The notes: generated by a model from the letters alone, not told the origin. Numbered from the stretch's first letter, positions 4,883 through 52,816 are shown. The stretch: DNA of 64,000 nt from an uncultured Nitrososphaeraceae archaeon (GCA_963729045.1 CAVSMN010000010.1:32001-96000); one strand, 5' to 3'. A program made the numbers and translations.

Positions 4883-5125
4883 GTTTAATTTGGTTCATAT
4901 AACTATATAAGGGTCATAATTTTTCAAATATTCATCAAAAATTAGATTTATCTCGATTAATATGGAAAATGACTGTTGCTAGTTACTACTTTTATATATT
5001 CTGCTCTACATTCATTACAAGCCCAGTATCTCAAATACAATCAGAGTATGCTACATTAGGTTGGACTCTAAAGTATTAGTAATCCTAATTATGGTACTAT
5101 ACAAACCATTTGCAACAATATAGTA

Positions 5126-5713
5126 ATGAAAAATCTTTCAAACATGTTTATGATTTTTCTAATCGCAGTTGGATTAGTAATAGTTCCTGTAATTAGTATG
5201 AATTCTGTAAATAGCGTGAATGCTCAAAATCAAAATCAAAATCAAACTTCGACACCAAATTCTCAAAATGATACAATGGCAACAATCACTGATAACCCTC
5301 AAACTACAATTGCAAATCAAACTACCATACCAGCAGAACAAACCACAGTTACTGTCAATCAAACGATTAACCCTATGGACCAATCTCAACTTCAACCACT
5401 TAGAATTCAGACAATAACATCTCAAACTGGAAACTTATCAAATATAGAAAATAAAACGGTAGTACAGACCACAGGTCCCGTCACTACTACTATTGCAAAC
5501 AAAACAACAGTACCGTTTAATCAAACTACTATGAGTATGGACAATATGACAAATTCCCAATCACAGGTATCCCCTTAACAGCAGCAGCAGCAATCGAGTA
5601 GTAATCAAACTGAAGGCGGATCATCGACTCAACAACAACAATCACCACCCCAAAATCAAAGTAAAGGACCGTTAGAACAACTTGGAGAATCCGTTAATAA
5701 AATGATAGTAGGC
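5126..5713 (+). pseudogene. secreted Q/T/N-rich protein (paralogue of 13825..14399) with a premature in-frame TAA at 5576-5578
   Basis: Signal peptide and TIANQTTIPAEQTTVTVNQT motif. The frame continues past TAA into QQQQ...KGPLEQLGESVNKMIVG, matching the paralogue C-terminus. Confidence 0.7.
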
Positions 5714-6232
5714 AGGGTTGATATAGAAACTACTATCTCTCTTCGACATTTGTATTTTATTATAATCTTTCTTTTATGTAAATTTTATCCATAAATTAAA
5801 TAAATAAACCAATACCTGCGACAAATACCATGATAATATCATTAGATATTAGACAAATTGCTGATATGTTGATAATATGATTAACATATCTTGGGTCAAC
5901 GTTTATAGCGCCACCCTGTTGGGCGGCGTGGATATTTACGATTGAACCAAACTAATCGGTTAAATAGACAACCCTTATCACTCTTCTCGATAATGTTCAC
6001 ATTCTTAGCATTACAATAATATTGTTGCCAAGGATCCATACCAAGAGAACTATTCTATATTTATGGCTGAAAGCAAATCTAATAATCAGCCATTCTTTTT
6101 ACAATGTACAATAGAGATAACATGCAGACATAATGAGATAACAACAGACTCACAATCCTGAAAAATCCTGGACAACTTTTCTCAATGTTGTATCTGTTAT
6201 ATAACATGATGAACATCAGAATGTGAAAAAAA

Positions 6233-6493
6233 ATGAAGAAAATTTTAGTAATCGCGACTTTTGTTCTGTCATTTGTACTGACAGCATCACTAGTTAGCAA
6301 TTCAATAGTCCAGACGGCATTAGCTCAGGACTTATCCACTCTTAAAGATGAGGCAACAAACTTGCTGACAGGAAATGATAATAGCCAAAGAACAAATAAT
6401 AATTCAGCATCATCAACAACAAATAATTCTACTTCATCTGACTCATCCCTAACAGAAAAAGCAACTGGCTTAATAGGTGGATTATTAAAATAG
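6233..6493 (+). CDS. small secreted Ser/Thr/Asn-rich protein
   Basis: Signal peptide MKKILVIATFVLSF..ALA/QD, low-complexity linker, amphipathic C-terminus. Confidence 0.7.
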   Translation: MKKILVIATFVLSFVLTASLVSNSIVQTALAQDLSTLKDEATNLLTGNDNSQRTNNNSASSTTNNSTSSDSSLTEKATGLIGGLLK

Positions 6494-6526
6494 AAGACTA
6501 TCAAATCTAAAATAAAGTAAGTAAAT

Positions 6527-6838
6527 ATGCTACCTGATGAAGTTTCTCCTGAGGTACGAGATAGTCCATCTTGTTGTAAAAAGTATGATGGAAAAAACAA
6601 GAAGTAATTTGACAAGTCCTGTGGAGTTAGAGCAAGTTTACTTAGAGGCTTATAGGAGAGACACCAATAAAAAAATGTCCATTCAAATATAAAAATCCGC
6701 CGTCATGTAAGAGATATTTTACTTAGAAACGGCTATATTTTTGTTAATCCTGATGATGCAGAAGATGTATTCATCACGAAAAAAGCAATTGATCAATATG
6801 AGTTGATTAGGATGACTATATCTCTTGCCTGGTATTAA
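6527..6838 (+). pseudogene. hypothetical protein, frameshifted
   Basis: MLPDEVSPEVRD/VHLVVKSMMEKTRSNLTSPVELEQVYLEAYRR/NIKIRRHVRDILLRNGYIFVNPDDAEDVFITKKAIDQYE is protein-like across 3 frames. Confidence 0.5.
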
Positions 6839-6889
6839 ACACCAATTGATACCTGTGTTTATATAGTATATTGATTACGAATCCTTACA

Positions 6890-7518
6890 ATGTCTAAAAA
6901 CGATAAAAAAGAAATTAATGACCAAACTTCATCTTAGTTAACAAAAATATCGAGAAGCAGCAAGATATTTACCAAAGTAATCAAAGATTATATAATAGAA
7001 TTATAGAACAAAACAACGAATCACTTGAACAAGTTTTCGATGAGTCAAAAAAAAATATAGATGAAAGTATCAGAGAAGCAAGAAATCAGATTCCACGTTA
7101 TACTGAAACTGTTAATCAAGTTCAAGAACAAACACTTCAAGCTACTAAAGATATTGCAGAAAGCTATCTTGAATATCAAAGACAAACAATCGATTCTTTT
7201 CAATCAATATCTACCCCGTATATATACAATGTAAATAACCAATTATTGAATAACCAAGATTACTTTAGAAGAATACCAGAAATATACTCAAAATTAGTAA
7301 ATAATTATGCAGAAAATACAATAGCAATGAGTAGAATTTTTAATGATATGGCATTTTCTAATATTGAATTATTTAAAAATGTAGTTGATAACACAAAGAA
7401 ACAATCTAAACATCTTGCAGAAATAGGAAAAAGAAATGTATCAGCATATGAGAGAATCGAAAGAGACAGCAACGATGCATTATTATCAACTCAAAAAGAT
7501 CATCAGTCTAAAAATTAG
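6890..7518 (+). pseudogene. alpha-helical phasin-like protein, broken near the 5' end
   Basis: ATG6890 MSKNDKKE..* then a long frame IEKQQDIYQS...EARNQIPRYTETVNQVQEQTLQATKDIAESYLEYQRQ running into the tracked ORF 7246..7518; similar to 36132..36641. Confidence 0.55.
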
Positions 7519-7878
7519 AAAAGAAAAATAAAATAATCTTTTCTTCTTTATTTCTATCAATATTTCATTTTTTTATAGTTTATAGGAATCTCTACTAAAT
7601 CTCATGAAATGGGGTAAATTGATCATCCAAGTCTGCTATTCTTCTGGATTACCATGAATTATGACTAATTGATAAACTATTCAATAATACGAAACAAGGA
7701 GGTTAGAAGCGTTACTATAAATAGATAGCTTCGTTCGGTGGGACAGCTTATGAAATTTCAGACTAGTCTGTAATTGGGAAAACCATCGCAGGTTGTACTT
7801 ATTTATCACTAATGGCTTATTTAAGCTATTTGAGAATATTTAGGATAACTTTATTATATTGCACGATATCCATAAGTC

Positions 7879-8071
7879 ATGACATTAAGTCTAAACTGTA
7901 AAGATGCAGGTGATCCTGTTTGCACTCATACGATGTATGGTGAAACTGAGGAAGAACTTTAGAGAATGCAAAAAAACACTTATAGAGGCTCACGGATATA
8001 CAGAAGAGACATTTAATGAACGAACCGGGAAAGACAAGGAGAACTTTAGAAAATTAATAAAAACTACTTAA
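7879..8071 (+). CDS. DUF1059-family small metal-binding protein (frameshifted)
   Basis: MTLSLNCKDAGDPVCTHTMYGETEEEL/ENAKKH/IEAHGYTEE has the C-x-D-x-G..C...GETEEE..H..H pattern. Confidence 0.7.
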
Positions 8072-8368
8072 CTTTTATGTCGCAATAATTTTTTTCAGAG
8101 ATAAGATCGAACCAATTCCTGTAAAATATGCAAGGACAAAATAAACTAATTAGTTTGTTTCTCCATCTTTCACAACACAATGATTCTATCAATTTGTAGT
8201 AATTTAATTACGATCGAATTTATGAGAATCTATTTTAGTTGCCCATTACTATATTGATTTCAATAATTATATGGAAAAATATTAATTTACTTTACAATCC
8301 TCATGCATAAGAACTGATTTATTATTTAAGACAACTTGTAACACTCGAACTAACTTTATATTGGAAGA

Positions 8369-8767
8369 CTATATCACTTCCTTAACCGAATTATCGTTTT
8401 CTACCTTGGTCATTCCTCTTTTTCGATATTCTTCTTGTGCTTCTGGAGTATCAGTCCCCGTTTGACCTTCTGCTGGTAATTATTTGGTCCGTTGAATCTC
8501 TTTTTACAGCCTTTGGTCCCTCCACTTTTAATTTAGCAGGAGTCATTGGTTCTTTATCTGAATATTCTGTTAATGGATCGCTTTTTCTGTTTGTGTTTGT
8601 GCCAGCTACACCTTCTTCATATTCTTTATCATTAGAGATTGTTGATGTTCTTAGTGATGAATCCACCGTATCCTTTGTTTTTTCGGCAACATCCTTTAGT
8701 AGTATCAACCACTGTATCCTTTGCGTCCTTTGACTTTTTCTTTGAGTTTGTCAATAATTTCTCCCAT
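8369..8767 (-). CDS. LEA/hydrophilin-like protein, paralogue of 4075..4665 (frameshifted)
   Basis: MGEIIDKLKE/VKDAKDTVVDTT/KDVAEKTKD...YEEG.AGT.T.R..DPL.EY.DKEPMTPAK.../DTPEAQEEYRKRGMTKV, shared with the 4075 protein. Confidence 0.75.
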
Positions 8768-9247
8768 TGATAATACAATTATTATTTAACATACTATAAA
8801 AACAGGGCTCAAATGGAGAGGGCTTTTTTTCAAAGGGTCAAAACAAAAACATTTTACTTAAGTTGTATGGATATAATGATTTCTAATTTATTATTTTAAA
8901 ACTATAATATGAAGTTGTTTCTGTAATCAGAATCAGTAATAAAGTTATTAAACTATTATTTACAGTATTTAGTAATAATACTAAACTAATACCCGTTACT
9001 ACGGCAATACTATCACCTAGTAAACTCTAGTATATATCTACAAAAGTATAATGATATTATATTATGAATCCAGATTTGATCTCGGTAGTAGGACAAAATC
9101 AAAATCAATACTATATTTTCTGACAGGAAATATAGTTAATTTATATAATCCGATAGTTTTTCTGAGATTTTCATGGTAATTATTATTCGGACTTCTTTGG
9201 TAGAAGTATTTTAAGTATGATATACTTTACTTTATGTATACAATAGA

Positions 9248-10460
9248 GTGGTTGCACATTTCAAAGTCTTAATGGTTTGTACCGAATATCCTCCCATGCA
9301 AGGTGGTGTTGGTCGCTATACTCACAACTTGGTTAAATCATTGCGCTCAAATAGTATAGACATCCTTGTTGTATCTAGTTCTGATGGTTCGGGAGACTAC
9401 AAAGGCATTTCACCACATAACAAGGACAATTCAGAGCTATTATTGAAATTAGTAAAAGAGATCAAGCCAGATATAGTACCATGTACAACACGAGTTCGGA
9501 CTGTATGGCTTTTTCTTAAATTCTCTACGACCTTCTAAATCATCAACAGGTCTTGACGAATTCTATGATAAATGTACGATCCCAATAGTAACCACATTTC
9601 ATACATCAATGTATTTTAAACAATGGATGCAATTAATAAACATAAAAGAAAAAGGTAATGATAATGACTATCTGAGATTTTACTCATTATATAAATACTG
9701 GCGACATTTTATTAATTATTCTTCTATGCATAGAATCAACAAATACCTTATGGCTAAGAGTGCTTATGGAATAGTTCTTTCAAATTACATGAGGGAACTC
9801 ATACCCGGAACAAAGGTGGTATATCATGGATCGGATCCATATTTCAAAACTGGCATTACACGCATTGAGGCGAGGAAGAAAATGCATCTTCCAGAGAAAG
9901 GAAAGCTTGCATTAGCTCAAGGATTCATTACCAATACTAAAGGATGGGATGTAATAAGAAAATTAAAAATGCCAAAGGATTGGAAGTTGGTGGTAAACTA
10001 TTCAAAGAACTTTTATAATAATGAAAAAATCAATTTTGAATATCATGACAATAAAGTGATTAATTTAAACAGAAGATACCTATCTGAAGAAGAACTCTCT
10101 TTATTGTTCTTTTCTTGTGATGTAGTATTCTTGCCCTACAAGGTGTGTTCTGGTTCAGGTATAATGTATGATGGCTTGGGACATGGACAACCGTTTGTGG
10201 CTTCTGATCTAGGTTTCTTTAAAGAGTTCTCAACACAAAATCTGGGTATTGTAACAAAGAGAGATCCTCATACATTCGAAAAGGCGTTTGAACAAATGGA
10301 TAAACAATACCTATTTTTCAAATCTAAAGTTAAAGACTTTCAAAAAAACTTACGCTGGGATAAAATAGCAGGACAACATATAACTATATACCAAAACATA
10401 ATAAAAGACGAAACACTAGAATCACAACCGGTAGAAATGATTCGTAAAAATAAGAGTTGA
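9248..10460 (+). CDS. glycosyltransferase family 4 (GT-B), one frameshift near 9480
   Basis: VLMVCTEYPPMQGGVGRYT N-terminus; DVVFLPYKVCSGSG..G.PFVASDLG C-terminal motif. Confidence 0.85.
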
Positions 10461-11352
10461 ACATACAGAATCATCCTGCCTTCAATTGTGAACTAATATA
10501 TGACAAGTAGAAAATCTCAGCTAAAGGGTTCTCTAAAAGAAACAGATGGGAACGTACGATACAGCAGGAATTCAGTGGGGTTCGAATCCATGAGGTATAT
10601 AGGACCTGTTATTTTAATAAATATTTGTAAATAAGAGTGGCTTAGTAATAGATGGATCATGGGTCTGTATTTTCAAAATATTCTTCGTTTAAATGTAATA
10701 TTTTCTCACTCTGTTAAACACAATAACTATGAAACTATCATACTGTCTGATTTAATGAAACTTGTCTAACAATCCCGAATTTTATCTACAGGGATCTACT
10801 TCATTTTATGGCATTATATGTTGGTTTTTTTAGAACTGGATTCAAAATACTGTCGTCATCATCTTCCGATCAATCAACGAATGGAAATAAAGGATATGTT
10901 GGAATATTATCGTCATCATACACATCTACTATCACTTACCTGATTTGTCAAATTGATATGCTTGTTTTTGGGATAGAATTATACTCCTTTTGTTACTTCA
11001 TACGCGTACAAATGGGCGACTGGAATATTGGGACAATACTTTTCAAAATACAATGACAATGATTCTAAATGTTGTTCATATATTATCTAATTATAACGGT
11101 TTTCTACTTCAAGTAATTTTTTAAACATATAAAATAATTTTTTCAAATCTTTAAATTTGAATAAATGATATAAAGCCAGACGGAAATGTGATAATACGGA
11201 TTGACATATTGATATATGCATTAATTCCAAACCGTAAAGAAATATCTCATATTTTTATTACTAATTGAATATATACACTATTAATAAACTATCATGAACA
11301 ATCAACTCAATGGTGAGGAAATCTAATTTCACCTAATGATTATGGCCAATTA

Positions 11353-11905
11353 ATGAATGCGAGAGAAGCAGCAGAGACTATTTCACAAAGTGAATATGGA
11401 CTGCATTGTTTACTAATTTATCGTGATCTTACTACTCTAAGAGAATTTTATTCTAATTATGTTCAAAAACAAATCAATGATAATGAAATGATTCAAATTA
11501 TGCCATTTTATGAAACAGAGAACTCTGTTAGAGAAATACTGTCAAAGAATTGGACCGCCGATCTTCATATGGTCCAAGAGGAGGAAAAATCATTGATCAT
11601 CGTTGATTCTTTAAGAGGATATCTTGATCATGATAATGTCGAATCCATTTGGAAAAATATTGAAGAAAGGGTCAACTATGCTAAAGAATTAGGTAAAAAG
11701 GGAATTTCCATATTAGGTGATGCGGGATGCATTTCTCTTTAAACATAAAATACAAAGTCTTTTGGATTACGAATGCTATTTGCCATTAAAATTTGAGAAT
11801 AATCTTAAGGGCATTTGCATGTATCATCAAAAGGATTTTAACAAGATATCCAAAGACTTTCAACAAAAAATAATAGATAGTCATTCAAAGACTATAGTGA
11901 TATAA
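11353..11905 (+). CDS. MEDS-domain sensor protein (frameshift near 11730)
   Basis: HCLLIYRDLTTLREFYS...GISILGD.../LLDYECYLP..GICMYHQKDF...IIDSH is typical of thaumarchaeal MEDS proteins. Confidence 0.75.
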
Positions 11906-11961
11906 ACAAGCCAACCAACCAATATCCTGATTTCTTATTTTTATTCTACTATAGTGTGCGC

Positions 11962-13494: not shown

Positions 13495-13824
13495 AGTAAT
13501 GTAGTTGTCCCTTCGAGTCTTGTAGAGGTAAATATCTAGGTTTAAGATAGTATTTAATGACAATAATAAAACAGAATACATAGGGAAGAGGCAACAACAA
13601 CACAACCTCGTTAAGTTGGTATATGGACTAATATTTACCTCAATCCCACAATGAAATCCGCTGCTTGTATTCTAATATAAAATGTATACGATAGTTTATA
13701 ACCATAATAAAGTGAGATAGAGAAACTGTAGCCACAGATTGGATTCCATATTCTTACTGTTAAACCATCTGTAGTGATGTGCTAATTTATTAGCTATTTA
13801 AGTAATAAAACATAAGACCAGATA

Positions 13825-15055: not shown

Positions 15056-15630
15056 TTAGTTGACGAAATGGCACCTGGGTTAGAACACCTATTGTAGAAT
15101 GTTACTAAGATTAAATGGTTATAACATACCGTATTTTGTATTCTATTTGCCATCATAGTAAATAGTGTTATCGGGTTCATTATCTCGATGATTGTCGATA
15201 AATATTATTAGCATTATATTAGATCTAGAGATGAAATGATTCTTCTTAAAAAATATACAAGCAAATGAAATAGGACCATAGCATTCAGCTCTGTCCTACG
15301 GGAAACCCGTCGACATCAAGTAAATTTCACGGTGTTCTCGATAGGGCATTAAGAAAAAGATATATCAATTAGGAAAAATTTTTCAATGTCTTTCATCACG
15401 CAAGAATTGCGATAACAGAATTGATACATGAGCCTATAATTACAGTAATAATAAAATATCAAATATTGTAAAAGATGTGAATAAGTAGGAATAACAAATC
15501 ATCTTTGTTAATTACCCTCTCGTGGTAATTTGATATATAAAATAAAACCTTTTTTCAAACTAATACAACCTCGGTGATTAAGGGAGTGATTGTATGTCCC
15601 TTCAAGTTTTATTAGAAACTTTTATCTAGA

Positions 15631-15660
15631 GTATTACCCTTTATAGTATTACCCTTTATA
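15631..15660 (+). repeat. perfect 15-bp tandem repeat upstream of a YsnF gene
   Basis: GTATTACCCTTTATA twice. Confidence 0.85.
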
Positions 15661-15708
15661 TTATACTACCTTATTTATCTATTTATAGCATGTTATATTA
15701 AATATTTT

Positions 15709-16392
15709 ATGAGCTCAAATATTGATTGGACGGATGTCATCAAAAAGGAAGCCAGAGGCATTAATGATGCTGATTTTGGTGAGGTTCAAGAACTAACAAC
15801 TGAATTCGTCATAACTCAGAGAGGATTGATTGATGTAGAAGTATTTGGCATACCCAAAGAAAGGGCAGAAAGTTATGATGGAAGCGTATTGCGATTTAAT
15901 GTTTCTGAAGATGAAGCTTTCAGTAAATATCGAGAAGGCGGAGAAGATACCGCTGAAACACTTTCACAAGAAGAAGAGGTTTCAACTATAGACGAGATGG
16001 AAACTCAGTTACAATCCAACCAAGATAATGAAACAGAGGAATCAACTACGGTACCTCTCATGGAGGAAAGAGTAGATATTTCAAAAAGAATCGAGGAAGA
16101 CACTGCTACTATAACCAAAAAACCAATAACAGAAACCAAAACAATAGAAGTACCGATAACTCATGAAGAAATAGCAATTGAAAGAAGGAAACCTTCTGGA
16201 GAGCAAACTTATACCGAACAAAAACCAGTCACCTCTCAAGAAGAGATAGAAATACCAGTAAAGAAAGAAGAAATTGAAGTCAACAAAAGACCATATGTTA
16301 AAGAGGAATTGGTGGTAAAAAAGAAACCAGTAACTGAAACAAAAGAAATTACAGAAGAAGTGACATCTGAAATGATACCTACAGAAGATTAA
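15709..16392 (+). CDS. PRC-barrel-like + YsnF/AvaK (DUF2382) domain protein
   Basis: IDWTDVIKKEARGINDADFGEVQE N-terminal domain; VPLMEERVDISK...VPITHEEIAIERR...IPVKKEEIEVNKRPYVKEELVVKK. Confidence 0.9.
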   Translation: MSSNIDWTDVIKKEARGINDADFGEVQELTTEFVITQRGLIDVEVFGIPKERAESYDGSVLRFNVSEDEAFSKYREGGEDTAETLSQEEEVSTIDEMETQLQSNQDNETEESTTVPLMEERVDISKRIEEDTATITKKPITETKTIEVPITHEEIAIERRKPSGEQTYTEQKPVTSQEEIEIPVKKEEIEVNKRPYVKEELVVKKKPVTETKEITEEVTSEMIPTED

Positions 16393-16665
16393 AAATAATA
16401 CTATTCTTCTTGGTGGTAGAAATTAATTTATCTGGTTCTAATTTTATGAGTATTGAACATAGTTTTTTAACATCCTATATACACTTTAAGTTCCCACACC
16501 AGATAAATTTATTTTTTGTAAACTTTACTAGTTTGTGCAACATATGAAATAAAATTTTAGTTATTATGTATTAAGGCTATCTAGTATTTGAACATAGTAT
16601 CAAAGTATAAGTCAGAATATTATATCGCATAAAAGTCAAAAGTTATGGGGGTATTGTATTTCCGC

Positions 16666-17346: not shown

Positions 17347-17772
17347 AATCTAAATTGATTAATAAAGTATTTAACAGCCAGTATTAGAATAATTTAGTTT
17401 ATCTGAAGATTAAACCAAAAGTTACAAATTTATTTTTCTGTTAAAAACAAAAAAAAGAACAACATACTATTAATATGCAACAACGGTTATGAATAAAAAC
17501 TAATATGTTGTCATCGGTTGCATTGCTATCAAAAGTCGTTTGCAATATACCCAGTGCTCATTCTATTACTGTTACGAACACATTCAAACATATCCACATC
17601 CCAGAGAAAAACTTGAGATTCCAAAATAGTCATTGTTGGATTTTTCTGAAAGATTTATTTAGAACAAACGTAGCGAATCAAAGAGAGAAACATTGTCAAA
17701 CTAATACATTAAGAATCAGCATGGTAAGACATTATTGTTAATAATAGTAAAAGTAACAGGTCTAGCTATCCT

Positions 17773-18613: not shown

Positions 18614-19020
18614 TAATTTAGGTGTATATCACAGTTAATAAATATGATAAAAACAAGATGCGATATATAAAAGATGGACGGTATAATTTTTTGGGAAATA
18701 ATATAAATTCTTATCCATACAGATTGAGCATCACGATGTGTTGATAAATATGGATTCGATACTATTATGCTGGAGAATATTGAAATACCCTTTGTCATAA
18801 ACTAACTTTAAATTCTCATCAAAAATTAATACAGGGTATTTAATATGATACTTCACCTACTAACCACTAAATATGGTAATTAGTAAATACACTATCTTAC
18901 TTTTATTTAGGATTAAACAAGTGTTGCTTTAGTGTATTTAAGAAAAACAAGTACAAAAATCAACAGATAATACTCAGAGGTATGGTATACCATTATAAAT
19001 ATTAATAATATAAAGTACCT

Positions 19021-19770: not shown

Positions 19771-19812
19771 TATTTAGAACATGAATATATAATATGTTAT
19801 ATAGAAAAATTT

Positions 19813-20590
19813 GTGACTACTAAGGATGAATTATTAAAATCTAAGAATATTAATCTCGACGACATCATAAAGAAAGAAGTCATAGGAATTGATGGGCTAG
19901 ATTTAGGAAAAGTAATAGAGATAGGGGAGACGTACGTTGTCACCCAAAGAGGTTTAATAGATAAGAAAAAATATCATCTCCCAATTTCATCGATAGAAAG
20001 TTTTGACGGAGAATTTTTGAATTTGAAGATTAATGAGACTGATTTAAAAAGTTATGAACAAACAGAGGATAATTTATTCGAAGGATATTCTTCTTTTAAA
20101 TCTTCAGACATGTCACATGAAGTACAGACAACTATTCCATTAATAGACGAGAAATTAGAAGTAACTAAAAAGACTATCGAAGAAAACATGCAAATAATAA
20201 AAGAACCCATAAAGGAAACGAAAATTGTAGAGATCGAGCTAATACACGATAAAGTTACAATAACGAAAAGACCATTCAAAGAAAATAATATTGCAAAGAA
20301 AATCGAATCCCACAGTCATAAATTAGAAAGTAATTCTTCAGATAGCCAGATAGACAAAAGAAGAAGAAGAAGAGGATATGAGGAACTATGATGACACTAC
20401 TGAAATAATTATGACACTTGAAAGAGAAGAACCCATTATAGTTAAAAGATCCCATGTCAAGGAAGAAGTGATAGTAAAGAAAGAAACTTTATTTGAAACA
20501 AAGACAATAACAGAAGAACTAATTCATGAACATATGAAATCTAGTGATATCGAACCTACAAGAGTAAAAGATAGGAATACATCAAATTAG
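19813..20590 (+). CDS. PRC-barrel-like + YsnF (DUF2382) protein (frameshift at AAAA before a GAA run, about 20357)
   Basis: LDDIIKKEVIG..DLGKV..YHLP..FDG; IPLIDEKLEVTKK; the second frame gives LEREEPIIVKRSHVKEEVIVKK. Confidence 0.85.
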
Positions 20591-21214
20591 CCAACAACAG
20601 GATGCTACTGCATTTAAATCGTAGTTTGATAAGTCTAATGATAGAATATAGGCATTGTAGTCCGATATATTTTAGAACCTCTTCACATGGTAGAATTAAT
20701 CCGTATTTATTAAATCGGTCGTTATTTCATACTGCAAAGATATTATGGTTTTTCTTACATTATTGCATATTTCATTGATATAATATTATAGTCATCTTCA
20801 ATTTCCTTATTTCTCAAATACTATTTTGGTCATCATTTTAAAATAGTTTTTTGTCTATTTGCTCCATGTACTTTTCTTGTTTGTTAGAAGTATTGTCATT
20901 ATCCATATTAATTTAAAATCACAATAACTTTAATTATTCGCACAGCGTCGGATTTCATATGCATTGGGCATAGTATTCAAGCTGAATCTGCAAAATTCTT
21001 GATAAATGAGAATAGACTAAAATGAGATTTAAGGTCATCTAATGAAATAAAATCTAATATTTTAAACTTAAAAAAAGTCAAGACAAATAATTGTCCATAA
21101 TTGTCAAAAAAATAAATTTCAAAGTATCTAGATGGTTGTAAAATACAAGAATATAGATACGTGAAATTAGAATTTTATCAACCATATATAATTTGTTAAA
21201 TAAATACATTCAAT

Positions 21215-21973: not shown

Positions 21974-22313
21974 CATAAATATTATTTTGTTTTGTTAATT
22001 AGAATCATTTCTTATACACAACATTGATTATCAAGTATTTGAATTGTCTCTATTACTATAGCCAAAGGACCTTTAGAGGATCTTTTTTAATTGATGAGGT
22101 TTGACATAAATCTCTAAAAATGTGAGAAATTTCGATATTATTTGGTATCGAAATGGCTTGTTCTCTTATATCAATGATTCCCTTAAGATTTTATTACTAA
22201 ATTCGAGTCTCTCATCATAGATAATATAATGAATCTGACTGTGCTCTTGTCTTGTGAAAAAATAATAAACTATGTATTGATTATTTATGCTATGTTATAC
22301 ATATCATTTTACA

Positions 22314-23378: not shown

Positions 23379-23504
23379 TGCGGTCACCGGGATTTGAATT
23401 CCCGCCACGTCTTTATTAAAAGACATAGTCCCGGGTTACGGGCTTTCTCCATATGAAATTATATATGGAAGGCCAGTGTCCTAACCAAACTAGACGATGA
23501 CCGC
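23379..23504 (-). tRNA. tRNA-Gly(TCC) with two introns (37/38: 23445-23465; 53/54: 23399-23429)
   Basis: The spliced sequence GCGGTCATCGTCTAGTTTGGTTAGGACACTGGCCTTCCAAGCCCGTAACCCGGGTTCAAATCCCGGTGACCGCA folds as a cloverleaf; both introns form BHB motifs. Confidence 0.92.
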
Positions 23505-23589
23505 AACACAAATTCTTTATTTTATTCTGATATTAAACTTTTCCAATATCATCATATCCGGCTAAAGAAAAGTTAATATTGATAATTTC

Positions 23590-36641: not shown

Positions 36642-36731
36642 AAGTTATAGATAAACAATCTGACTTATAAACTTTACCAAAATTACCCATTTAATTCCAA
36701 CAAAAACCGCTAAATGGTCAAAACAAAAAAA

Positions 36732-37157
36732 TTAGGCTTTGGTTCCGCAGTTTCCACAGAACTTTTGTCCGTCACCTATTTGTGTACCACAGTTTGTGCA
36801 GAATTTGCCACTGGTAGTAGTACTACCATCAGCTGCTATAGCCAACTTCTTCTTTTTACCACTAACTCCACTTGCAGCAAAGAATGCAGCACTAACTCCA
36901 CCAATAATTACAGTTATTAGAATTATCATCAATACTGTGCTATCCAAATTAGTTCCAAACATTGCAGTACCAGAACCATATGCACCTTGTTGTTGAGCAT
37001 TACTAATTTTCTCTTTAGCCAAGGTAAGTTGTTCTTCCAAAGTTGCAGAACCAGGTTGACCGCTATATTGAGCATATGCAATATTTAATACTGGTAATAA
37101 TAGTATTGAACCCATTACCAATGAAAAAGCCGCTACCATTGAGTATGCCTTGTTCAT
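36732..37157 (-). CDS. membrane protein with a C-terminal double zinc ribbon
   Basis: Signal peptide, TM helix, FCTNCG..FCGNCG. Confidence 0.85.
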   Translation of the reverse strand: MNKAYSMVAAFSLVMGSILLLPVLNIAYAQYSGQPGSATLEEQLTLAKEKISNAQQQGAYGSGTAMFGTNLDSTVLMIILITVIIGGVSAAFFAASGVSGKKKKLAIAADGSTTTSGKFCTNCGTQIGDGQKFCGNCGTKA

Positions 37158-37253
37158 ATTAAAAATTACTCAGATAGGAATTATATAACTTTTATGTTAA
37201 AGAATAATGATAACATTTAAGATATGTAAATTTTCATATTAAGACAGAGAAAA

Positions 37254-37700: not shown

Positions 37701-37703
37701 AGA

Positions 37704-42470: not shown

Positions 42471-42472
42471 AT

Positions 42473-45468: not shown

Positions 45469-45679
45469 AAATGTGGAAAGATATCTTATAAATCTTTATT
45501 TAGATTTTATATATTCAACACCATGGTTTTTCACAAATAAATTTTTAATTGATTTTACTTTTTCCAAAAAGAAAAGAATGCTTAGCAGTAGCAAGCTTTA
45601 AAATTGTTAAATCAAAACAATTATACAAAAAAAGACTAGTGTTTGTAGAAATTCAATTACAATTACAATTACATATATT

Positions 45680-46717
45680 TTAGTTCACATCAAGTCTTAT
45701 TCTAATAATTCCATTTCTAGCAGAAACATTTGATACACGGAGAATGGTATTCGCTGGATGTGGAACAGGTATATCATATCTCTTGTTAGTATCAATAATA
45801 AGTAAGGATAAGCTGTTTATTGATTCATCAAAATTTGCTTGAACTTGAGAATCACTCAAAGTATTCCGATCTTCTACTATTACATCGATGAATTTCTCTC
45901 CGATTATGATTTCCGGAATAAAGGATTTTTCCAATTTATCTTCATCCATGGATTTTGAACGGTCATTTCTATTTGAGGAGTCGTTTGAAAAAGAGGGCGA
46001 GGATATAGAAGACCTTCGTCGATAATTTTGTGAAGGGTATTGTTTTTGTTTAGAAAACATATTCGAAAAGAACTTCCATCCAAAAGCTGTTGCCAAGCCG
46101 ATAATGAATCCGCCTATGTGAGCTAGATATGCAACTCCGCCTGATTGACCGATTAATGCAAATACTAGTTGCATTATGAACCAAAATGGAATGTACGCTA
46201 TTGCAGGAATTCTGACGGTAGTTATAAAAAATGCAAATATGATGGTATGAATCTTGGCATGAGGAAAGAAAACTAGATAAGCGCCTAAAACACCTGATAT
46301 TGCTCCGGATGCACCAATTGCGGGTATACTTCCTTCACCTGTGGCTACAGCGTAAATACTGTGTGCAAAACCAGCCATAACCCCCCAAAAAAGATACAGC
46401 ATCAAATACTTGAAATGACCAAAACGATCCTCTAAATTATCGCCAAAAACGTGAAGAAAGAACATGTTACCTAAAAGATGTGCTATGCCTCCATGCATGA
46501 ACATTGAACTAAAAAGTGATCCCAGGTTTTGACCCGAAAGAATCAAATCTGGAATAGAACCATAGTTGTAAAATAATGCAATAACTGCGGATCTATTTGA
46601 AAAGTTAGAAGTTACAATGACTTCATAAATAAAAATGACAATATTCATGCCAATCAGACCATAGTTTACATATGGCCGTCCATTTAATCGAGGAGTATCA
46701 TCATGAATTGGGAACAT
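45680..46717 (-). CDS. rhomboid serine protease with a soluble C-terminal domain
   Basis: HGGIAHLLGNM, GASGA, AHIGG. Confidence 0.93.
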   Translation of the reverse strand: MFPIHDDTPRLNGRPYVNYGLIGMNIVIFIYEVIVTSNFSNRSAVIALFYNYGSIPDLILSGQNLGSLFSSMFMHGGIAHLLGNMFFLHVFGDNLEDRFGHFKYLMLYLFWGVMAGFAHSIYAVATGEGSIPAIGASGAISGVLGAYLVFFPHAKIHTIIFAFFITTVRIPAIAYIPFWFIMQLVFALIGQSGGVAYLAHIGGFIIGLATAFGWKFFSNMFSKQKQYPSQNYRRRSSISSPSFSNDSSNRNDRSKSMDEDKLEKSFIPEIIIGEKFIDVIVEDRNTLSDSQVQANFDESINSLSLLIIDTNKRYDIPVPHPANTILRVSNVSARNGIIRIRLDVN

Positions 46718-46764
46718 AATTAAAGCAGGTTGTCAATCATAAAATAGAAAAATATTTGTGTTTC

Positions 46765-46965
46765 TCATGTACCAAAAGGGTTGAAATTAGGCATATCGCT
46801 ATTCGTTTCACTATGAGCTTTTCTAATATGTCGTCTTAGCCGATCATCTTCTTCGAATATCATGTCACAATATTTGCATTTCTTTTTATTACCATCGTCC
46901 TCATTTTTTTTATTTTTATCCTTTGTATTTTTTTTATCTGTATTTTTTTTAGAAAATAATTTCAC
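46765..46965 (-). CDS. C2H2 zinc-finger protein
   Basis: CKYCDMIFEEDDRLRRHIRKAH. Confidence 0.8.
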   Translation of the reverse strand: MKLFSKKNTDKKNTKDKNKKNEDDGNKKKCKYCDMIFEEDDRLRRHIRKAHSETNSDMPNFNPFGT

Positions 46966-47060
46966 AATTATTTACAAAATGAGGATATAAATTAAAGTTG
47001 CTATTAACATCTTTTACCAAAATTCTACCAAACTAGAATAAAAGAATGAGTGGAATTTGA

Positions 47061-47291
47061 TTACTCCATTACTATCATAGTCAAAGTAGACTTTACCCCA
47101 TTCAGCTTTCTTAGCTTCCATGTTATAGTTTCTTTCACTTTATCCATGCTTTCGCCCTCTACTAAAGCTACTATATCATAGACACCATATACCTGATAAA
47201 CATGTTTTACTAAATCTATTTTTTTTAATTCATTAACAATTGATTCCTCACTACCCAATTCTGCATTCATAAGCACAAAAGCTTCTGGCAT
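47061..47291 (-). CDS. Lrp/AsnC ligand-binding domain protein
   Basis: AFVLMN..VYGVYDIVA..LRKLNGVKSTLT. Confidence 0.92.
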   Translation of the reverse strand: MPEAFVLMNAELGSEESIVNELKKIDLVKHVYQVYGVYDIVALVEGESMDKVKETITWKLRKLNGVKSTLTMIVME

Positions 47292-47369
47292 ATACCAGAT
47301 AACTACCTATAACAAATATAAAAATGTGATTTAGATTCGAATTTATTAGTTCAATTGAATTTCAGAATA

Positions 47370-48179
47370 CTAGATTTCTGGACTTAATTTTGATTCATCA
47401 AATAATTTAGCCCTGGCCCATTCATAATCAAAAAAGTCTTCACACCACTCATGAAATGAGGTATCTTGGCTATAAAACATAATATTAAGATCAGGTTCCC
47501 CCTTTAGAGTCGGAAAGGATATGCAGGATTCTTTTTCATTAAATATCGTCACTATGTTTGTTTTATCCATCATTCGACGTTCTACAATTCCCTTAGACAC
47601 AAGATTTTTCCATCCAAGTTTTTTTAATAGTTCATTTCTTCCCTTGGGAATCACAACATCAGCCGGGAAGATATAACAGAATTTGACATTATTATTCACT
47701 CTTTCAGCTATGGTTTCTATCAAATCGATTGGAACTTGAGAGATGACCTCCTTGATATAGTCTTGAGAGTTGTGGTAAACAGCCTTCCATCGTTGAAGAA
47801 CAGCCATTACACCCACGACCACCTCACAATTGTTCAAAGAACCAATTCTCTGAATGAATTTTAAAGGTAGGTTACTAAGTGTATGTTCTTGGAAATAGTC
47901 TTTGTGTTTAAATGGGAAGTTGAAGTTTGGAATAAGAGAAACAATAATCTCACCATACGGAGTCAATAATAATTCGCCTTCTCCTGTTTTTTTCACAAGT
48001 TTTGAATCAATTAATCGGTTAATATTACGATGTGATTCCTGCATAGTGGCATTTAGATCCGTTGCCAGCTGAGATAAGCGATAGGGTTTTATGGATAATT
48101 TCATGAGCATGTATATCCGCAGGTCCCCTGCAAGTTCAAAGAAAACTGATTGAAAGTCATCGTCGGCCTGGCTGAGCAT
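47370..48179 (-). CDS. ArsR-like wHTH regulator with a DUF1724-like C-terminal domain
   Basis: FFELAGDLR..ATMQESHRNINRL..LTPYG; FHEWCEDFFDYEW. Confidence 0.85.
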   Translation of the reverse strand: MLSQADDDFQSVFFELAGDLRIYMLMKLSIKPYRLSQLATDLNATMQESHRNINRLIDSKLVKKTGEGELLLTPYGEIIVSLIPNFNFPFKHKDYFQEHTLSNLPLKFIQRIGSLNNCEVVVGVMAVLQRWKAVYHNSQDYIKEVISQVPIDLIETIAERVNNNVKFCYIFPADVVIPKGRNELLKKLGWKNLVSKGIVERRMMDKTNIVTIFNEKESCISFPTLKGEPDLNIMFYSQDTSFHEWCEDFFDYEWARAKLFDESKLSPEI

Positions 48180-48291
48180 ACGTTAAATTGAGAGAACTGG
48201 AATTTAAACTTGATAATTTAAATGAAGTAAACCTACGTAGGGTATAAAACAAAACGTTTTAATTGGTTTTGGTAATGATAAAATTTGAAGT

Positions 48292-48390
48292 GCCCGGGTA
48301 GTATAGAAATGCATTAATTGCATTGTAAAGTCCGGTCCAGTATGGGGGACTGTCACTCCCTTGACCCGGGTTCGAATCCCGGCCCGGGCG
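48292..48390 (+). tRNA. tRNA-Asp(GTC) with a 24-nt non-canonical D-loop intron (about 48307-48330)
   Basis: Spliced GCCCGGGTAGTATAG/TCCGGTCCAGTATGGGGGACTGTCACTCCCTTGACCCGGGTTCGAATCCCGGCCCGGGCG; anticodon at 48352-48354. Confidence 0.92.
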
Positions 48391-48747
48391 CTTTATAGGA
48401 TTCTTGTTTCCTCCTCAGAATTTACCTCATTACTAATAGTAAGGTTCTTGATAATAGGACGTTATGAAAGGTCGATATTAAATTAGTAATTTTGATAGCA
48501 CCGTATATTTAGAAGTTTTTTGAATTCGTGCTATCAGTTGTTAAATAATATTTAACAATAGTATCAATGAACTTACACAAGAGGAACTTTGTTACAGATA
48601 TCAAAATTTTTAGGGTTCTTACAAAATAAACCATTCTGCGGAAAGTTAAGTCTAGAGAATACTGAACACAGACAGCCAGGATAATTACAAATAACCATGA
48701 ATTGACCAAAGCTAGTCTTAGTCAATTCTTAGATTTTGGATTTGGTT

Positions 48748-49017
48748 TTAGGATGGAATGGATGGATTCTTTTTGTCCGTCTTGGCATACCATCCATAGA
48801 GCGATACAGCCCATCCAACAATAATTAACATGATAGAGACAACTTCTGCATCTACCATCGGATTTCGGAATTCTACTTCATTAGGAGGAGATTGTATATT
48901 ATATTCCGTATCAGGTATAGCATCTTGAATTACAACAGGAGATGTAATCGATACCCCTATTACCCCAACCACTACCATGATTAAACCAGCTATTAATATT
49001 GGTTTATAACTGACCAT
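48748..49017 (-). CDS. two-TM membrane protein
   Basis: Two hydrophobic segments; TATA upstream. Confidence 0.65.
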   Translation of the reverse strand: MVSYKPILIAGLIMVVVGVIGVSITSPVVIQDAIPDTEYNIQSPPNEVEFRNPMVDAEVVSIMLIIVGWAVSLYGWYAKTDKKNPSIPS

Positions 49018-49846
49018 GCAAAGAACTACATTTTTTCCTATATAAATATAACTCTATTTTAATGGAGATAGTTAGAAAAAGTCTTACAACCAGATGCCAG
49101 CTACTTTATATCTAACGATCGAATGACCAATCAACAATAAAATATAGAAAATGCAATATATGTTGGTCAATTGCTCTTTACAGCCTAGAAAAAACATTAT
49201 AAGAATATTTTGATAATATTAGAAAAGTGAACCTGATTATTTTATATCTAACATATATAACGCTTTCAGAAGAATCATCCGATTTGAATTTCTACAAATA
49301 GAATTAGGAATTTTTTTTCAAGATATCCGATATCACGCGTAAGCGCAGTTGTCCAAAAAAAACATCAACAGTGACACAACGTAGTCAAACTATTTCATAC
49401 TCGGCTTCCTAAAGTCACCAATTACAATAAACTTCTCCATTAATCAAGTTTTTTTATCAATCCAATATCTGCAATATCATTTTTTGAACCCGTTGGATTT
49501 TCAGAATATGATCTACTCCATTAAAACGTAAATCAAATACCAAAATCTAAAGTTACTTTCTTATGTCATTTTTCTATTTATTGTCATTAGATCAATCGTG
49601 TTTTATTGATAGGAACATCAAAATGGTCAAATAATACTGTACAAAATATTGATAGTTATCAAAGTAACATCTACAGCTAAATTTTTCTGGATATTATATT
49701 TTTTACTACTGAAATTATAGTAATTCAACGTTTAAATAAACCGCATGTATGGACATTTGATATATTCTCTAGGACACTTTTATTATTGTTTTTTCTAGGA
49801 ATCACATTTATCAATAATTTCAAAGTTTATTTATTGTTCTTGTACT

Positions 49847-50017
49847 ATGATGTCTATGGACAATAATGATGAGAAAAATGGGGAAACATTGGATAGCGAC
49901 AAATTAAAAAAAGAAATGCTTAAACCTATAACCAAATCAAAAACTGAAGTAGACGAAGAATTAAAGGAGCTAGAAGTAGAAAGTTCGGGTGGTGGAAAAG
50001 ACGGTGGAGGAGGGTAA
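49847..50017 (+). CDS. small charged protein with a Gly-rich C-terminus (56 aa, below the ORF-track cutoff)
   Basis: MMSMDNNDEKNGETLDSDKLKKEMLKPITKSKTEVDEELKELEVESSGGGKDGGGG*. Confidence 0.6.
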   Translation: MMSMDNNDEKNGETLDSDKLKKEMLKPITKSKTEVDEELKELEVESSGGGKDGGGG

Positions 50018-50332
50018 GAAAATCAAGCCTACTAATGAAATGAGAAGAGTGGCAGTACATGATCATGGTCGTTTAGCAGGTATCCTTTTTTCGCCTAACA
50101 AATCGATTAGTTTTTTCTCATTTGGAGTTGAATTTGTCAATACTATTTCAGTAATTCCTGCATTTTCAAAACTGGACAACTTTTTGACACCATAGTCGTT
50201 TGTGATCTGAAACATTCACTTTTTCAATATATCGTCTTCTATGATTATCCAATCAGGTTTGTTGTACTAACGGGAATCTTACCCAATTTAAACCACATTT
50301 TATTATCAATCTACTTAATGGTAACAACAATA

Positions 50333-50731
50333 TTAGTTTTTGATTTGTTTATTGGGTCGTCTGTTCACTAAATCAACTGCTAATTCATTTAGCTTAGATA
50401 ACTTAAATGGTTTAATCAACAATTTAATGTTTTTAGCAACGAATTTTTTCTCACTATTAAAAGATTGTTTAACTGAATCATACGCAGAAATGATTAGAAT
50501 GGATGCAAATGGATACTTTCCAAAAATCTCATTTGCCGCTTCAAGCCCGTTCTTACCATCTGGAAGTTTGTAATCCAAAATAACAAGATCGGGTTTAAAC
50601 TCTTCATAGTCACCCAGAACATTTGAAGCGGTCGTGTTTGTAACAGAAATGTGATATCCCTTGTTTATTAGAAAATCTTTATATAAATTTAACAAATCCT
50701 GCTCATCTTCAATGATCATTATCTTTATCAC
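50333..50731 (-). CDS. stand-alone response regulator receiver
   Basis: IMIIEDE, VILDYKLP, ISAY, IKPF. Confidence 0.92.
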   Translation of the reverse strand: MIKIMIIEDEQDLLNLYKDFLINKGYHISVTNTTASNVLGDYEEFKPDLVILDYKLPDGKNGLEAANEIFGKYPFASILIISAYDSVKQSFNSEKKFVAKNIKLLIKPFKLSKLNELAVDLVNRRPNKQIKN

Positions 50732-51050
50732 TTCTGTAAGATATCAAGTACAACATACATTAATAAATTCTAATGTTTATGTTTTATAGATATATTCTAA
50801 TCTCAGATTCGGTTTAAATAGTCAAGATTAAAAATATTTATCCATCAACTCATCTTAAATGATTCCATAATTCTGCAGCCATTAGTATCAATATACGTTT
50901 ACTATTCATTTCTGACTAACATTTCAACTGCAAATCACATTTCAGAAAATTATGAATACATTATACGATCCTGACAAAAACGAGGTATTCTGTCAAAATG
51001 CGCATTCAGAATAAAACACACAGGTTTTGGTAAATTCTTACAATTTCTAC

Positions 51051-51284
51051 TTATTGTTTATATTTAGGGGCGTCTTGCTCAGAGACGGTAAAATGTAAAT
51101 TATGTCCATCAAAATTAGAAACTAATGTTTTAGGTATCATATATTTAGTTTTGTCAACTACACCTCTTTCTGCAATAATATAGTCTTCACTAATTTCTTG
51201 GACCTCCCCTAAATCATAATCATTAATCCCTCTTGCTTCCTTTTTAATTACATCTGACCAGTTTATATCCAGATTGCCCGACAT
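51051..51284 (-). CDS. stand-alone PRC-barrel-like domain protein
   Basis: INWSDVIKKEARGINDYDLGEVQE..YMIPK..FDG, very similar to the N-terminus of 15709..16392. Confidence 0.88.
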   Translation of the reverse strand: MSGNLDINWSDVIKKEARGINDYDLGEVQEISEDYIIAERGVVDKTKYMIPKTLVSNFDGHNLHFTVSEQDAPKYKQ

Positions 51285-51743
51285 ACAATTTCATATAAAA
51301 CAAGTTTTAAATAGATCATATAATTGGATAAATGTTTTCTTGATTATTTCGAAGGAAGATAAATCTATGCTCAGATAGCGGGCCATATTTTTTATATGAC
51401 TCCATATCGAATTAACTAAAGATGTTTTCATACAGATTTTTATAGATAATAAGGCACTGGAATAAAGAATATTTTTACTATGATATTGGCTATCGTCGAG
51501 TATTAATACAGACCCTTAATGATTCAGAAGGGAATTTCTGCAATAATAACAATATAATACCCATAATAATCCAAAAAATATTCTATGGTATAATTCTCGA
51601 GGTGTACTAACTTAATTATTCGGATCGTTAAGATCAAAAATGACATGAATATCCTATTATTTTGGAGTCATTTTCGACTCATCTAGACGAGACTTGGATT
51701 TCTAGCAATAAATATAATAACTTCAGATACAATAATAGATCGG

Positions 51744-52025
51744 TTGAACACAGAAAAAGAAAGTAATGTTCCTACACCTGCTGCCTCAAAATCTGTGGAA
51801 TATGTTCTTTTAGATGGGTTTATAAACGAATTATGGGAAGTTGACTATGAAAATGGAATTGCATTAAATGTCACAGAGATAATAAAAGCAGAATTGGCAG
51901 GAAACGTAATAAAGTATTCCGGCAAGATCGAAGATTTCCTATCAAATGAAAGAGGTTTCAAGAAACTTCACTTTCATGAATCCGTCAACTTTCCTATGCG
52001 AGTACATTTTGAGACTTTAAAGTAA
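51744..52025 (+). CDS. hypothetical protein
   Basis: 93-aa ORF, TATA upstream. Confidence 0.6.
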   Translation: MNTEKESNVPTPAASKSVEYVLLDGFINELWEVDYENGIALNVTEIIKAELAGNVIKYSGKIEDFLSNERGFKKLHFHESVNFPMRVHFETLK

Positions 52026-52187
52026 TTAACAATAATCAATATCTATTTAAAATATTGCATCCATAGTTATACTACATATTAGATATTTAGATTAAAGGTC
52101 TAAAAGATAATGGTTATTTAAACGTGTTTTATCGCAACAAAAAATAGGATTTTTGAAAATTATGATGATTCAAAAAAAAGGAAATTA

Positions 52188-52630
52188 TTATTGTCCGAAT
52201 GGTGCCTGTAATTCAGCTCCACCATATGTACCTGCTGCATTAGGGTCAGCATCATCAACTGGTTCTTCAGTTATAATAAATTGTGTATAGGTATAAGGAT
52301 TTACCATGTTATCTGAGACTTTCAAGACTATTTCCATCAAGTGAACCTAAGCTTAACTTGTAGTTAGATCCGTCTGCGTCAACCAGCCATGCTTCAAAGA
52401 CTTTATCCTGTTTAGGCGTTGCAGTCATATTTACTGAAATATCTAATGTTTTATTTTGGGTATCGATTGAGAGTGTCCCTATCTTTTCTGTACCAAATCC
52501 AGGACCAGGATCTTTAGCTTTATTAATATCCATAGTCATGGGTTCGGCATTGGCTCGATTGTAAACCAAGAGTCATTGAAAATATAGTTGCAATCACAAT
52601 TCCAAATAACGATATATTTATTTTAGACAT
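52188..52630 (-). CDS. secreted protein with an RskA C-terminal-like (anti-sigma-K) domain, frameshifted
   Basis: ATG52630, signal-like SLFGIVIATIFSMTLG; VFEAWLVDADGSNYKLSLG/MVNPYTYTQFIITEEPVDDADP..GGAEL. Confidence 0.7.
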
Positions 52631-52816
52631 TGTAAAGATCTATTGTTCAAACTATAAATAGTTGATATAAAGAAAGAACACAAATATGTTTATCTAAAGA
52701 ATCTAAAAAAGAATTCCCCATATGGGAATTACAATCTGATGCTCAACCGAGGTTACCATATAGAGTACCAACAAGACAATTCTAGGAAAAATGAGATGAT
52801 ATGTTATATAAAATAT

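Follow-up and report, generated by a model that had tools for sequence, protein, structure and literature searches.

The promoters of a set of stress-type genes in a 64,000-nucleotide (nt) stretch of DNA from an uncultured Nitrososphaeraceae archaeon (GCA_963729045.1 CAVSMN010000010.1:32001-96000, hereafter the window) resemble one another over a short core made up of a TATA-type box and a second element, WTGTTW, just past it. The comparisons described below establish this motif, where it lies, and that it is conserved both between genomes and in four unrelated gene families. On balance, and with some reserve, we favour the view that these are ordinary core promoters of leaderless or near-leaderless genes, used by TBP and TFB and belonging to a lineage-specific type common to a stress-gene cluster in Nitrosocosmicus-like archaea; judged from the sequence, this cluster is likely to be co-regulated. 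An earlier note on this DNA had singled out another feature of the same promoters, a C three bases and a pyrimidine two bases before the TATA box (C-3 and Y-2 below), and had proposed that it forms a non-canonical TFB recognition element (BRE) by which a different TFB reads a sigma-factor-like stress regulon. The canonical archaeal BRE is RNWAAW, a purine- and A-rich element directly 5' of the box. The C is enriched at -3 and yet the position is soft, and the composite of TATTTAWR and WTGTTW appears to be the better shared mark.

Evidence for the conserved core comes from related genomes. Four paralogues from the window, searched against one genome of each species, gave 77 loci (labelled L001 and onwards, L001 being a contig 99% identical to the window), all from Nitrososphaeraceae; the closest, at 99% identity, is a Nitrososphaerales metagenome-assembled genome, followed by Candidatus Nitrosocosmicus, which places the window in a Nitrosocosmicus-like ammonia oxidiser of soil. 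Gene 15709 (genes are referred to by coordinate) has 13 orthologous promoters from different Nitrosocosmicus genomes, in which the blocks that are invariant or at least 90% conserved are TATTAC(C) at about -58, TAT-TA, ATGTT at -19 to -15 and the TT just 5' of the ATG. The T at -2 and the A at -1 of the proposed BRE are invariant in all 13, as is the ATGTT, which begins 2-3 nt past the box, whereas the base before TAT is C in nine promoters, G in three and A in one. Since T(-2) and A(-1) vary no more than the TATA core does, the box probably begins two bases further 5' (TATTTA...), which would leave the C at the junction between BRE and TATA box. In sister lineages the promoter reads caaG-TATTAAAT, caaC-TGTTAAAT or caaC-TATTATAA. 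At two loci (L002:1304 and 1894; L003:312 and 901) the orthologues of 15709 and 13825 both have G where the window has C, which could represent a change shared within a genome, each genome contributing only two promoters to this comparison.

The wider family of 15709-like genes gives a similar picture. From 121 family open reading frames (ORFs) with an upstream region we obtained 74 anchored promoters, 39 of which were non-redundant (less than 60% identity over 65 nt). Counted from the box as first called, these 39 have A at -5 in 23 and at -4 in 21, T at -2 in 23 and A at -1 in 22, and at -3 they have C in 14, T in 11, G in 8 and A in 6. The earlier note had made its proposal depend on C at -3 being commoner than background, and this proved to be so, with 14 of 39 against 14% (binomial p=5e-4) and with A avoided; a BRE defined by that base nevertheless finds no support, since the supposed determinant varies both among the orthologues and across the family. 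If the box begins at TATT, the A enrichment at -5 and -4 becomes one at -3 and -2, although the sequence leaves the register (TATTTATA or TTTATAGC) unfixed. In the 39 promoters, information is raised only within the box, at -5 to -1 and at three downstream positions (+10, +11 and +13). Conservation stops there on the 5' side, so recent duplication is not the source of the likeness, and given that the family proteins are only 30-50% identical, the fact that only -5 to +13 is shared argues that the core has been kept by selection.

The second part of the unit is found beyond the family. In the window, WTGTTW occurs at -24 to -14 before 6 of 17 stress-labelled genes (15709, 19813, 21215, 22314, 51284 and 53023) and before 3 of 51 others (p=0.006; chance is about 0.03 per zone). 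Three of these genes, 19813, 22314 and 53023, carry it without the C, sharing the rest of the promoter with the other members, and this is a point against a class defined by C-3. Two of them, 22314 and 53023, had been set aside earlier as misfits; the C is indeed absent from both, but WTGTTW at -24 to -14 brings them within the composite mark. A 19-nt weight matrix built from 11 distinct 15709-orthologue sites, which we refer to as the composite model, has matches with promoter geometry in the window at 15709, 22314, 51284 and 19813. Among its 48 matches of at least 12 bits in the 77 loci, 22 lie 27-37 nt before an ORF start codon, and 16 of these belong to family genes. The other six precede orthologues of 52630 (L008), 22314 (L076:1743) and 13825 (L002 and L003), a small ORF (L005) and a likely spurious ORF (L062); those at the 52630, 22314 and 13825 orthologues and at the L005 ORF stand 30-33 nt upstream of the start codon. 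Since four unrelated gene families keep one architecture and distance in several genomes, paralogy alone is insufficient to explain it. The broader claim of the earlier note, that stress-type genes share a promoter type even where they are not homologous, is thereby borne out and extends to their orthologues in other Nitrosocosmicus genomes. WTGTTW, alone or in the composite, thus behaves as a shared cis-element at a fixed position in non-homologous genes and is kept in orthologues; it is non-palindromic and shows no dyad symmetry.

Geometry supports a core promoter. Each of the 13 strings quoted in the earlier note occurs once, at the coordinate and on the strand assigned to it. Promoters were anchored by a fixed rule, also the basis of the general promoter baseline, that takes the first hexamer TTWAWA, TTAAAT, TATAWA, TTATAT or TTTAAG starting at -37 to -24. 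By this rule the TATA box starts at -28 (4882), -28 (13825), -27 (15709), -28 (17346), -30 (21215), -27 (51284) and -28 (52630), as previously reported, and that of 6233, at -36, is the one outside 27-30 nt. The string described for 19021 is present, but the rule anchors it 1 nt later and its pyrimidine at -2 is lost. With eight of the nine listed promoters having a hexamer start at -27 to -30, the arrangement fits the core promoter of a leaderless gene, for which an A/T-rich box of about 8 bp is expected some 25-30 nt 5' of the start point, and a leaderless start with a box about 30 nt upstream agrees with what the available part of PMC3379541 gives for amo promoters.

How far the C-3/Y-2 signature marks this group can be judged in the window itself. 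Among 32 genes with their own upstream region (a gap of at least 40 nt) and a TATA-type hexamer, nine have C-3 with Y-2 (4882, 6233, 7246, 13825, 15709, 17346, 21215, 51284 and 52630), set against a baseline of 94/1028 (9.1%) for every hexamer of this type that the window contains. PRC/DUF2382-family genes have it in 5/7 cases and others in 4/25 (Fisher p=0.010); with the gene labels of the earlier note, which were assigned with the promoters in view, the figures are 8/10 and 1/22 (p=3.6e-5). The signature is therefore enriched over the window background, but as a defining feature it finds no support, because the base varies. Nor are the nine promoters independent, in that 51284 and 4882 are homologous to the N-terminal domain of 15709 and five or six of the nine come from paralogous genes. 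Whole-window counts are at chance for CTATTTAWR (8 against 8.5 expected) and CYRTTWAWA (25 against 26), and WTGTTWWAT is not above shuffles across the whole window; with totals at chance, it is placement alone that is unusual. The contrasting core class, said to have A at -3, turns out to have been hand-picked, for the base at -3 in the 22 non-stress window promoters is A in 9, T in 7, G in 4 and C in 2.

A broader comparison used 700 ORFs of at least 90 amino acids from the window and the 77 loci, with the family assigned by hidden Markov model (130 matches) and unique anchored promoters counted. In the promoter zone the 60 family promoters have C-3 in 22, C-3 with Y-2 in 20, A-3 in 7 and the prefix S-3/T-2/R-1 in 33, whereas the 97 promoters of other genes have these in 17, 12, 31 and 9 respectively; in a control zone (-68 to -45) of other genes (n=114) the counts are 15, 8, 35 and 6. 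Family promoters are different from those of their neighbours, and the Nitrosocosmicus clade alone shows the same tendency, with C-3 in 9/17 family and 7/39 other promoters. These family counts, like the window enrichment, speak for a factor that recognises C-3. An A at -3, presented earlier as a feature of core-region promoters, is no more frequent in the promoters of other genes (31/97) than in the control zone (35/114), and this counts against such a factor.

Taken together, the conserved unit would consist of two parts. The first would be an A/T box starting some 30 nt ahead of the start codon. Its form in the genus is TATTTAWR, whereas sister lineages have TATTAAAT, TGTTAAAT or TATTATAA; in front of it there is usually AA followed by a non-A base (C > T > G). 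As the second part, the proximal WTGTTW (ATGTTATA in the 15709 group) would come 2-3 nt past the box, at about -22 to -14. On this model C-3/Y-2 would be no more than the 5' edge of the unit, T(-2) and A(-1) being the first two bases of the box and the C the commonest, but replaceable, junction base. TBP may occupy the TATT-type box, with TFB bound to the A-rich stretch 5' of it and the junction base loosely constrained. The genes are presumably expressed together, and WTGTTW would be the likelier handle for a co-regulating factor, whether it is read by a conventional regulator, by a TFB contact 3' of the box or through a preference of TBP. Individual genes may add operators of their own, for example the ATTACC dyads of 15709.

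Several observations weigh against this interpretation and need to be considered with it. Distance to the ATG is compatible both with a register shift of 2 nt and with none: the hexamer starts at -27 or -28 in 39 of 97 unique sites of family ORFs with an ATG start, other genes form a plateau from -31 to -27, and the family peak thus falls inside the normal range. WTGTTW is absent from the listed promoters of 17346, 19021, 4882 and 13825. The composite model gives only a modest excess, both in the window (20 matches of at least 9 bits against 12.2, with a maximum of 16, in 30 first-order simulations) and in the 77 loci (48 matches against 30-37 simulated), and 12 of the 16 family matches in the loci come from loci that supplied training rows. 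In the comparison with other genes, chance would account for about 43 of the 97 anchors, going by the density in the control zone, and these promoters lie near stress genes and are often stress-type rather than housekeeping. Kinship of the family promoters by descent means that the p-values overstate independence, and the start codons were derived from ORFs and alignments.

An alternative that we consider improbable is that a paralogue of a basal factor defines the class by means other than the C, either a TFB that reads WTGTTW 3' of the box or a TBP that prefers a TATT box. The distance between WTGTTW and the box is constant in different genomes and in four gene families, as would suit a core element better than a free operator. 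The consensus of the downstream TFIIB recognition element (BREd) is RTDKKKK, and WTGTTW may be said to resemble it, which provides a lead only. Against this alternative, archaeal repressors also commonly occupy -22 to -14, and the element is found in just 6/17 stress-labelled window genes. The available text of PMC7554672 gives 4-11 TFB and 2-5 TBP genes in ammonia-oxidising archaea, which speaks for it, and in the accessible part of a preprint (bioRxiv 10.64898/2026.09.06.749720) the Sulfolobus TFB2 regulon differs from TFB1 promoters in architecture, through its BRE-TATA spacing, and not in motifs. A general stress or dormancy programme of soil ammonia-oxidising archaea run in this way, by a TFB on an ATGTTA-type element or a TBP on the TATT box, is likewise improbable in our view.

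The window does encode a TFB paralogue, at 53769-54680 (+), with two TFIIB cyclin repeats by Pfam; its zinc ribbon scores 23.7 bits against a Pfam cut-off of 29, and a single CxxC pair is present in the translation. The gene is divergent from 53112-53648, which has a weak ribbon-helix-helix match, and its distance from 52630 and 51284 is 1-2.5 kb. When the C-terminal helix-turn-helix of the paralogue is aligned with the TFB core of Pyrococcus woesei, the recognition helix shows no obvious loss, an observation that is neutral for every reading. A phmmer search of the ORFs in the 77 related loci with the window TFB found only one TFB, in L047, indicating that linkage of TFB and cluster is not conserved. 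Of the features expected of an alternative-TFB regulon, multiple TFB genes are present, going by the window paralogue and the literature count, while a conserved BRE determinant that differs from the main class and a conserved link to a TFB gene, the latter a supportive rather than a defining feature, are both missing.

We are more doubtful still that there is no regulon at all and that the likeness was inherited with paralogous genes and sharpened by hand-picking in A/T-rich upstream DNA. The paralogy of over half the listed genes, the chance-level motif counts, and the hand-chosen labels and TATA registers all lean towards it, as does the S-T-R prefix among family neighbours, which at 9/97 differs little from the control (6/114, p=0.29). 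However, the family promoters are alike only within -5 to +13 despite the divergence of their proteins, and the non-homologous 52630, 13825 and 22314, together with orthologues elsewhere, carry the motif at the same distance. Least of all do we expect a specialised TFB paralogue to read a non-canonical BRE with C-3 and Y-2: the enrichment of that signature, the TFB gene in the window and the many TFB and TBP genes reported for the group (PMC7554672, in the part available) speak for it, but the single requirement open to test, that the determinant be conserved, fails. The C is replaceable, T(-2) and A(-1) are likelier box than BRE, genes without the C share the remaining promoter, A-3 is not the norm elsewhere and a single TFB occurs in 77 loci.

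On the favoured reading, of ordinary core promoters of a shared lineage-specific type, the individual sites can be set out as follows. The 15709 promoter (15674..15697, +; PRC-like N-terminal domain and DUF2382) has the C at 15679, the TATTTATA box at 15680-15687, ATGTTA at 15690-15695 and its ATG at 15709, and scores 25.2 bits in the composite model, to whose training set it belonged. Other promoters of family genes are those of 51284 (51295..51319, -; ATGATC-TA-TTTAAAAC-TTGTTTTAT, 13.4 bits) and 21215 (21177..21201, +; PRC-like and DUF2382; ATCAAC-CA-TATATAAT-TTGTTAAAT), while 19813 (19783..19801, +) is a family gene without the C, reading GAA-TATATAAT-ATGTTATA and scoring 9.6 bits. The DUF2382 gene 19021 (18985..18999, +) has GTATAC-CA-TTATAAA, and its orthologue in L008 reads CTA-TTATAAA. 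Upstream of 17346, with two PRC-like/DUF2171-like domains, lies ACTGGC-TG-TTAAATA (17368..17382, -), and the promoter of 4882 is at 4903..4918 (-), this gene probably being co-transcribed with 4075-4665.

The genes outside the family are represented first by 52630, which encodes a secreted RskA_C-like protein and has ATCAAC-TA-TTTATAG (52652..52666, -); its intact orthologue (L008:3619-4059, -) carries CTATTTATAGTATGTA 30 nt upstream of the ATG. The promoter of 13825, for a secreted N/Q/T-rich protein, is ATTAGC-TA-TTTAAG (13789..13802, +), and the orthologues in L002 and L003, with G replacing C, carry AATGTTAG. Gene 22314, for a small hydrophilic protein, has TTATTTATGCTATGTTATA (22281..22299, +; 16.8 bits), which on a hand count agrees with that of 15709 in 15 of 20 bases and has T replacing C. 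For 53023, another small hydrophilic protein, the element is TTGTTA, 20 nt upstream (53038..53043, -). A TATA-like site preceded by C-T-G stands 36 nt upstream of 6233, a small secreted protein (6189..6204, +), and a promoter-like site at 7246, absent from the original list and belonging to a 90-amino-acid protein of no family, has C-C-G followed by TATATATA (7211..7226, +). Two further good matches to the composite model lack an annotated gene at a suitable distance: one at 53718-53736 (-; 14.9 bits) in the intergenic region upstream of the TFB gene and one at 16466-16484 (-; 14.0 bits) between the convergent 15709 and 17346; these may mark unannotated small genes or RNAs or may be chance matches.

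Elements specific to 15709 lie further upstream. A perfect palindrome, AATTACC-N7-GGTAATT, is found about 180 nt before the gene (15510-15530, +), and two tandem 15-nt units (AGTATTACCCTTTAT) carry TATTACC at 15632-15638 and 15647-15653 (+); the unit has two copies in the window and three in L001 (1735-1800). TATTAC is invariant in all 13 orthologous promoters, several having it as TATTACC-N7/8-GGTAATA or AGTACTA dyads. The palindrome and TATTACC units look like a putative operator of some regulator. As a shared upstream element TATTACC was rejected: it has 18 matches overall against 10.5 expected, but precedes only 15709 among the listed promoters.

The promoters used earlier for comparison have AAAG immediately 5' of the TATA box (genes 36641 and 37157; 36664..37196, -), and so does that of a tRNA-Gly(UCC) gene, AAAG-TTTAATAT, gene and promoter together spanning 23379..23544 (-). 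The tRNA itself (23379-23504, -), named in the earlier note, is real: its anticodon, read by eye, is UCC and it contains two insertions of about 23 and 38 nt, was missed by ARAGORN and scores 26.6 bits in Rfam against a gathering score of 29. There is another tRNA match in the window, a partial one scoring 32 bits, at 48325-48382 (+).

The stress-type genes occupy two gene-poor stretches of the window (about 32% G+C), at roughly 4-22 kb and 49-53 kb, flanking a housekeeping core; by Pfam the window encodes a Rieske/cytochrome b pair, a plastocyanin-like protein and, as archaeal informational genes, PCNA, ribosomal protein S15, a TFB and class II tRNA synthetases. Pfam confirmed DUF2382, a YsnF-type domain, in 15709, 19021, 19813/20378 and 21215, placed a DUF2171-like domain of 17346 narrowly below its cut-off, and gave no significant family match for the small hydrophilic 'LEA-type' proteins. 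DUF2382 is the only family that Pfam confirms; where the small proteins were labelled 'LEA' or 'PRC', every match is sub-threshold. The products of 51284 (77 amino acids) and, more distantly, 4882 (67 amino acids) are homologues of the N-terminal domain of the 15709 family.

Several window genes are broken. The DUF2382 gene at 19813-20590 (+) is split into overlapping frames, 19813-20391 and 20378-20590, and has a single intact ORF of 258 amino acids as its orthologue in L008 (1307-2083, -); the split is a frameshift or an assembly indel. The 52630 gene (52188-52630, -) lies in three frame pieces (52523-52630, 52309-52569 and 52188-52340), its orthologue at L008:3619-4059 (-) being an intact 146-amino-acid secreted protein with a weak RskA_C match. 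Further split genes are a glycosyltransferase (9248-9538/9609-10460) and a paralogue of 4075-4665 at 8451-8778, and the number of such genes suggests pseudogenes or assembly indel errors. In L008:1-6048 the orthologues of 19813, 19021, 18613, 52630 and 15709, with a 13825-like fragment, are contiguous within 6 kb; since the same orthologues are divided in the window between two stretches some 30 kb apart, the cluster has been rearranged. The neighbours of family genes in L024, L068, L015, L025, L028/L041 and L013/L053 include Mn catalase, ferritin-like proteins, Ku, DNA polymerase X, DsbA-like thioredoxins and CBS-domain proteins, and these neighbourhoods look like stress islands.

The significance of the promoter type depends on which factor reads it. 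Ammonia-oxidising archaea have unusually many TFB and TBP genes, for which a global regulatory role is suggested in the accessible portion of PMC7554672; a sigma-factor-like role for them is an idea put forward but never shown. A promoter type kept across genera and characteristic of a coherent stress cluster gives that idea a concrete test set. Conservation resides in the TA at the edge of the box and in ATGTTA, and attention therefore shifts away from the C. Were the set under an ordinary regulator it would be a routine regulon, whereas if a basal-factor paralogue did run a general stress programme, TATTTAWR-N2-WTGTTW would be an archaeal counterpart of the sigma-B promoter, marking PRC/DUF2382, small hydrophilic and secreted proteins in one cluster. 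In the literature searched we found no described thaumarchaeal BRE class, TFB-specific promoter, example of this motif or DUF2382/PRC stress genes in these archaea. A preprint, in the part available, describes a Nitrososphaera viennensis PRC-domain protein that responds to carbon limitation.

Among known systems, the TFB/TBP networks of Halobacterium are alternative-TFB regulons. They and those of Sulfolobus resemble the present case in having many TFB/TBP paralogues and a coherent gene set with a core-promoter variant; there, occupancy or genetic dependence has been shown, whereas our cluster is known from sequence alone. As far as the available text of the sources goes, Sulfolobus TFB3 acts in the DNA-damage response (PMC6101594), and promoters dependent on TFB2, which serves a cell-division regulon, match those dependent on TFB1 almost exactly in the TATA box and closely in the BRE but differ in spacing (bioRxiv 10.64898/2026.09.06.749720), so it is spacing that differs there, unlike the changed BRE base proposed in the earlier note. 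The amo promoters of ammonia oxidisers, in the part of PMC3379541 available, have a TATA box 23-24 nt from the ATG, suggested leaderless starts and lineage-specific motifs flanking BRE and TATA; they share with our set the fixed short TATA-ATG distance and the implied leaderless transcripts, but concern other genes and other motifs and one operon family rather than a multi-family set. Human BREd is also immediately 3' of TATA and has a T/G-rich consensus that ATGTTTT or ATGTTAT may be said to resemble, though as a eukaryotic element it offers a lead only. Finally, in Bacillus subtilis the DUF2382 protein YsnF belongs, with CsbD, to the general stress regulon controlled by sigma-B. Sigma-B is a bacterial sigma factor acting at -35/-10 promoters and the analogy is functional only, but the likeness extends both to the gene content, with DUF2382/YsnF-type and small hydrophilic proteins and, in the related loci here, Mn catalase, ferritin, Ku and thioredoxin genes nearby, and to the use of one promoter class for a stress set.

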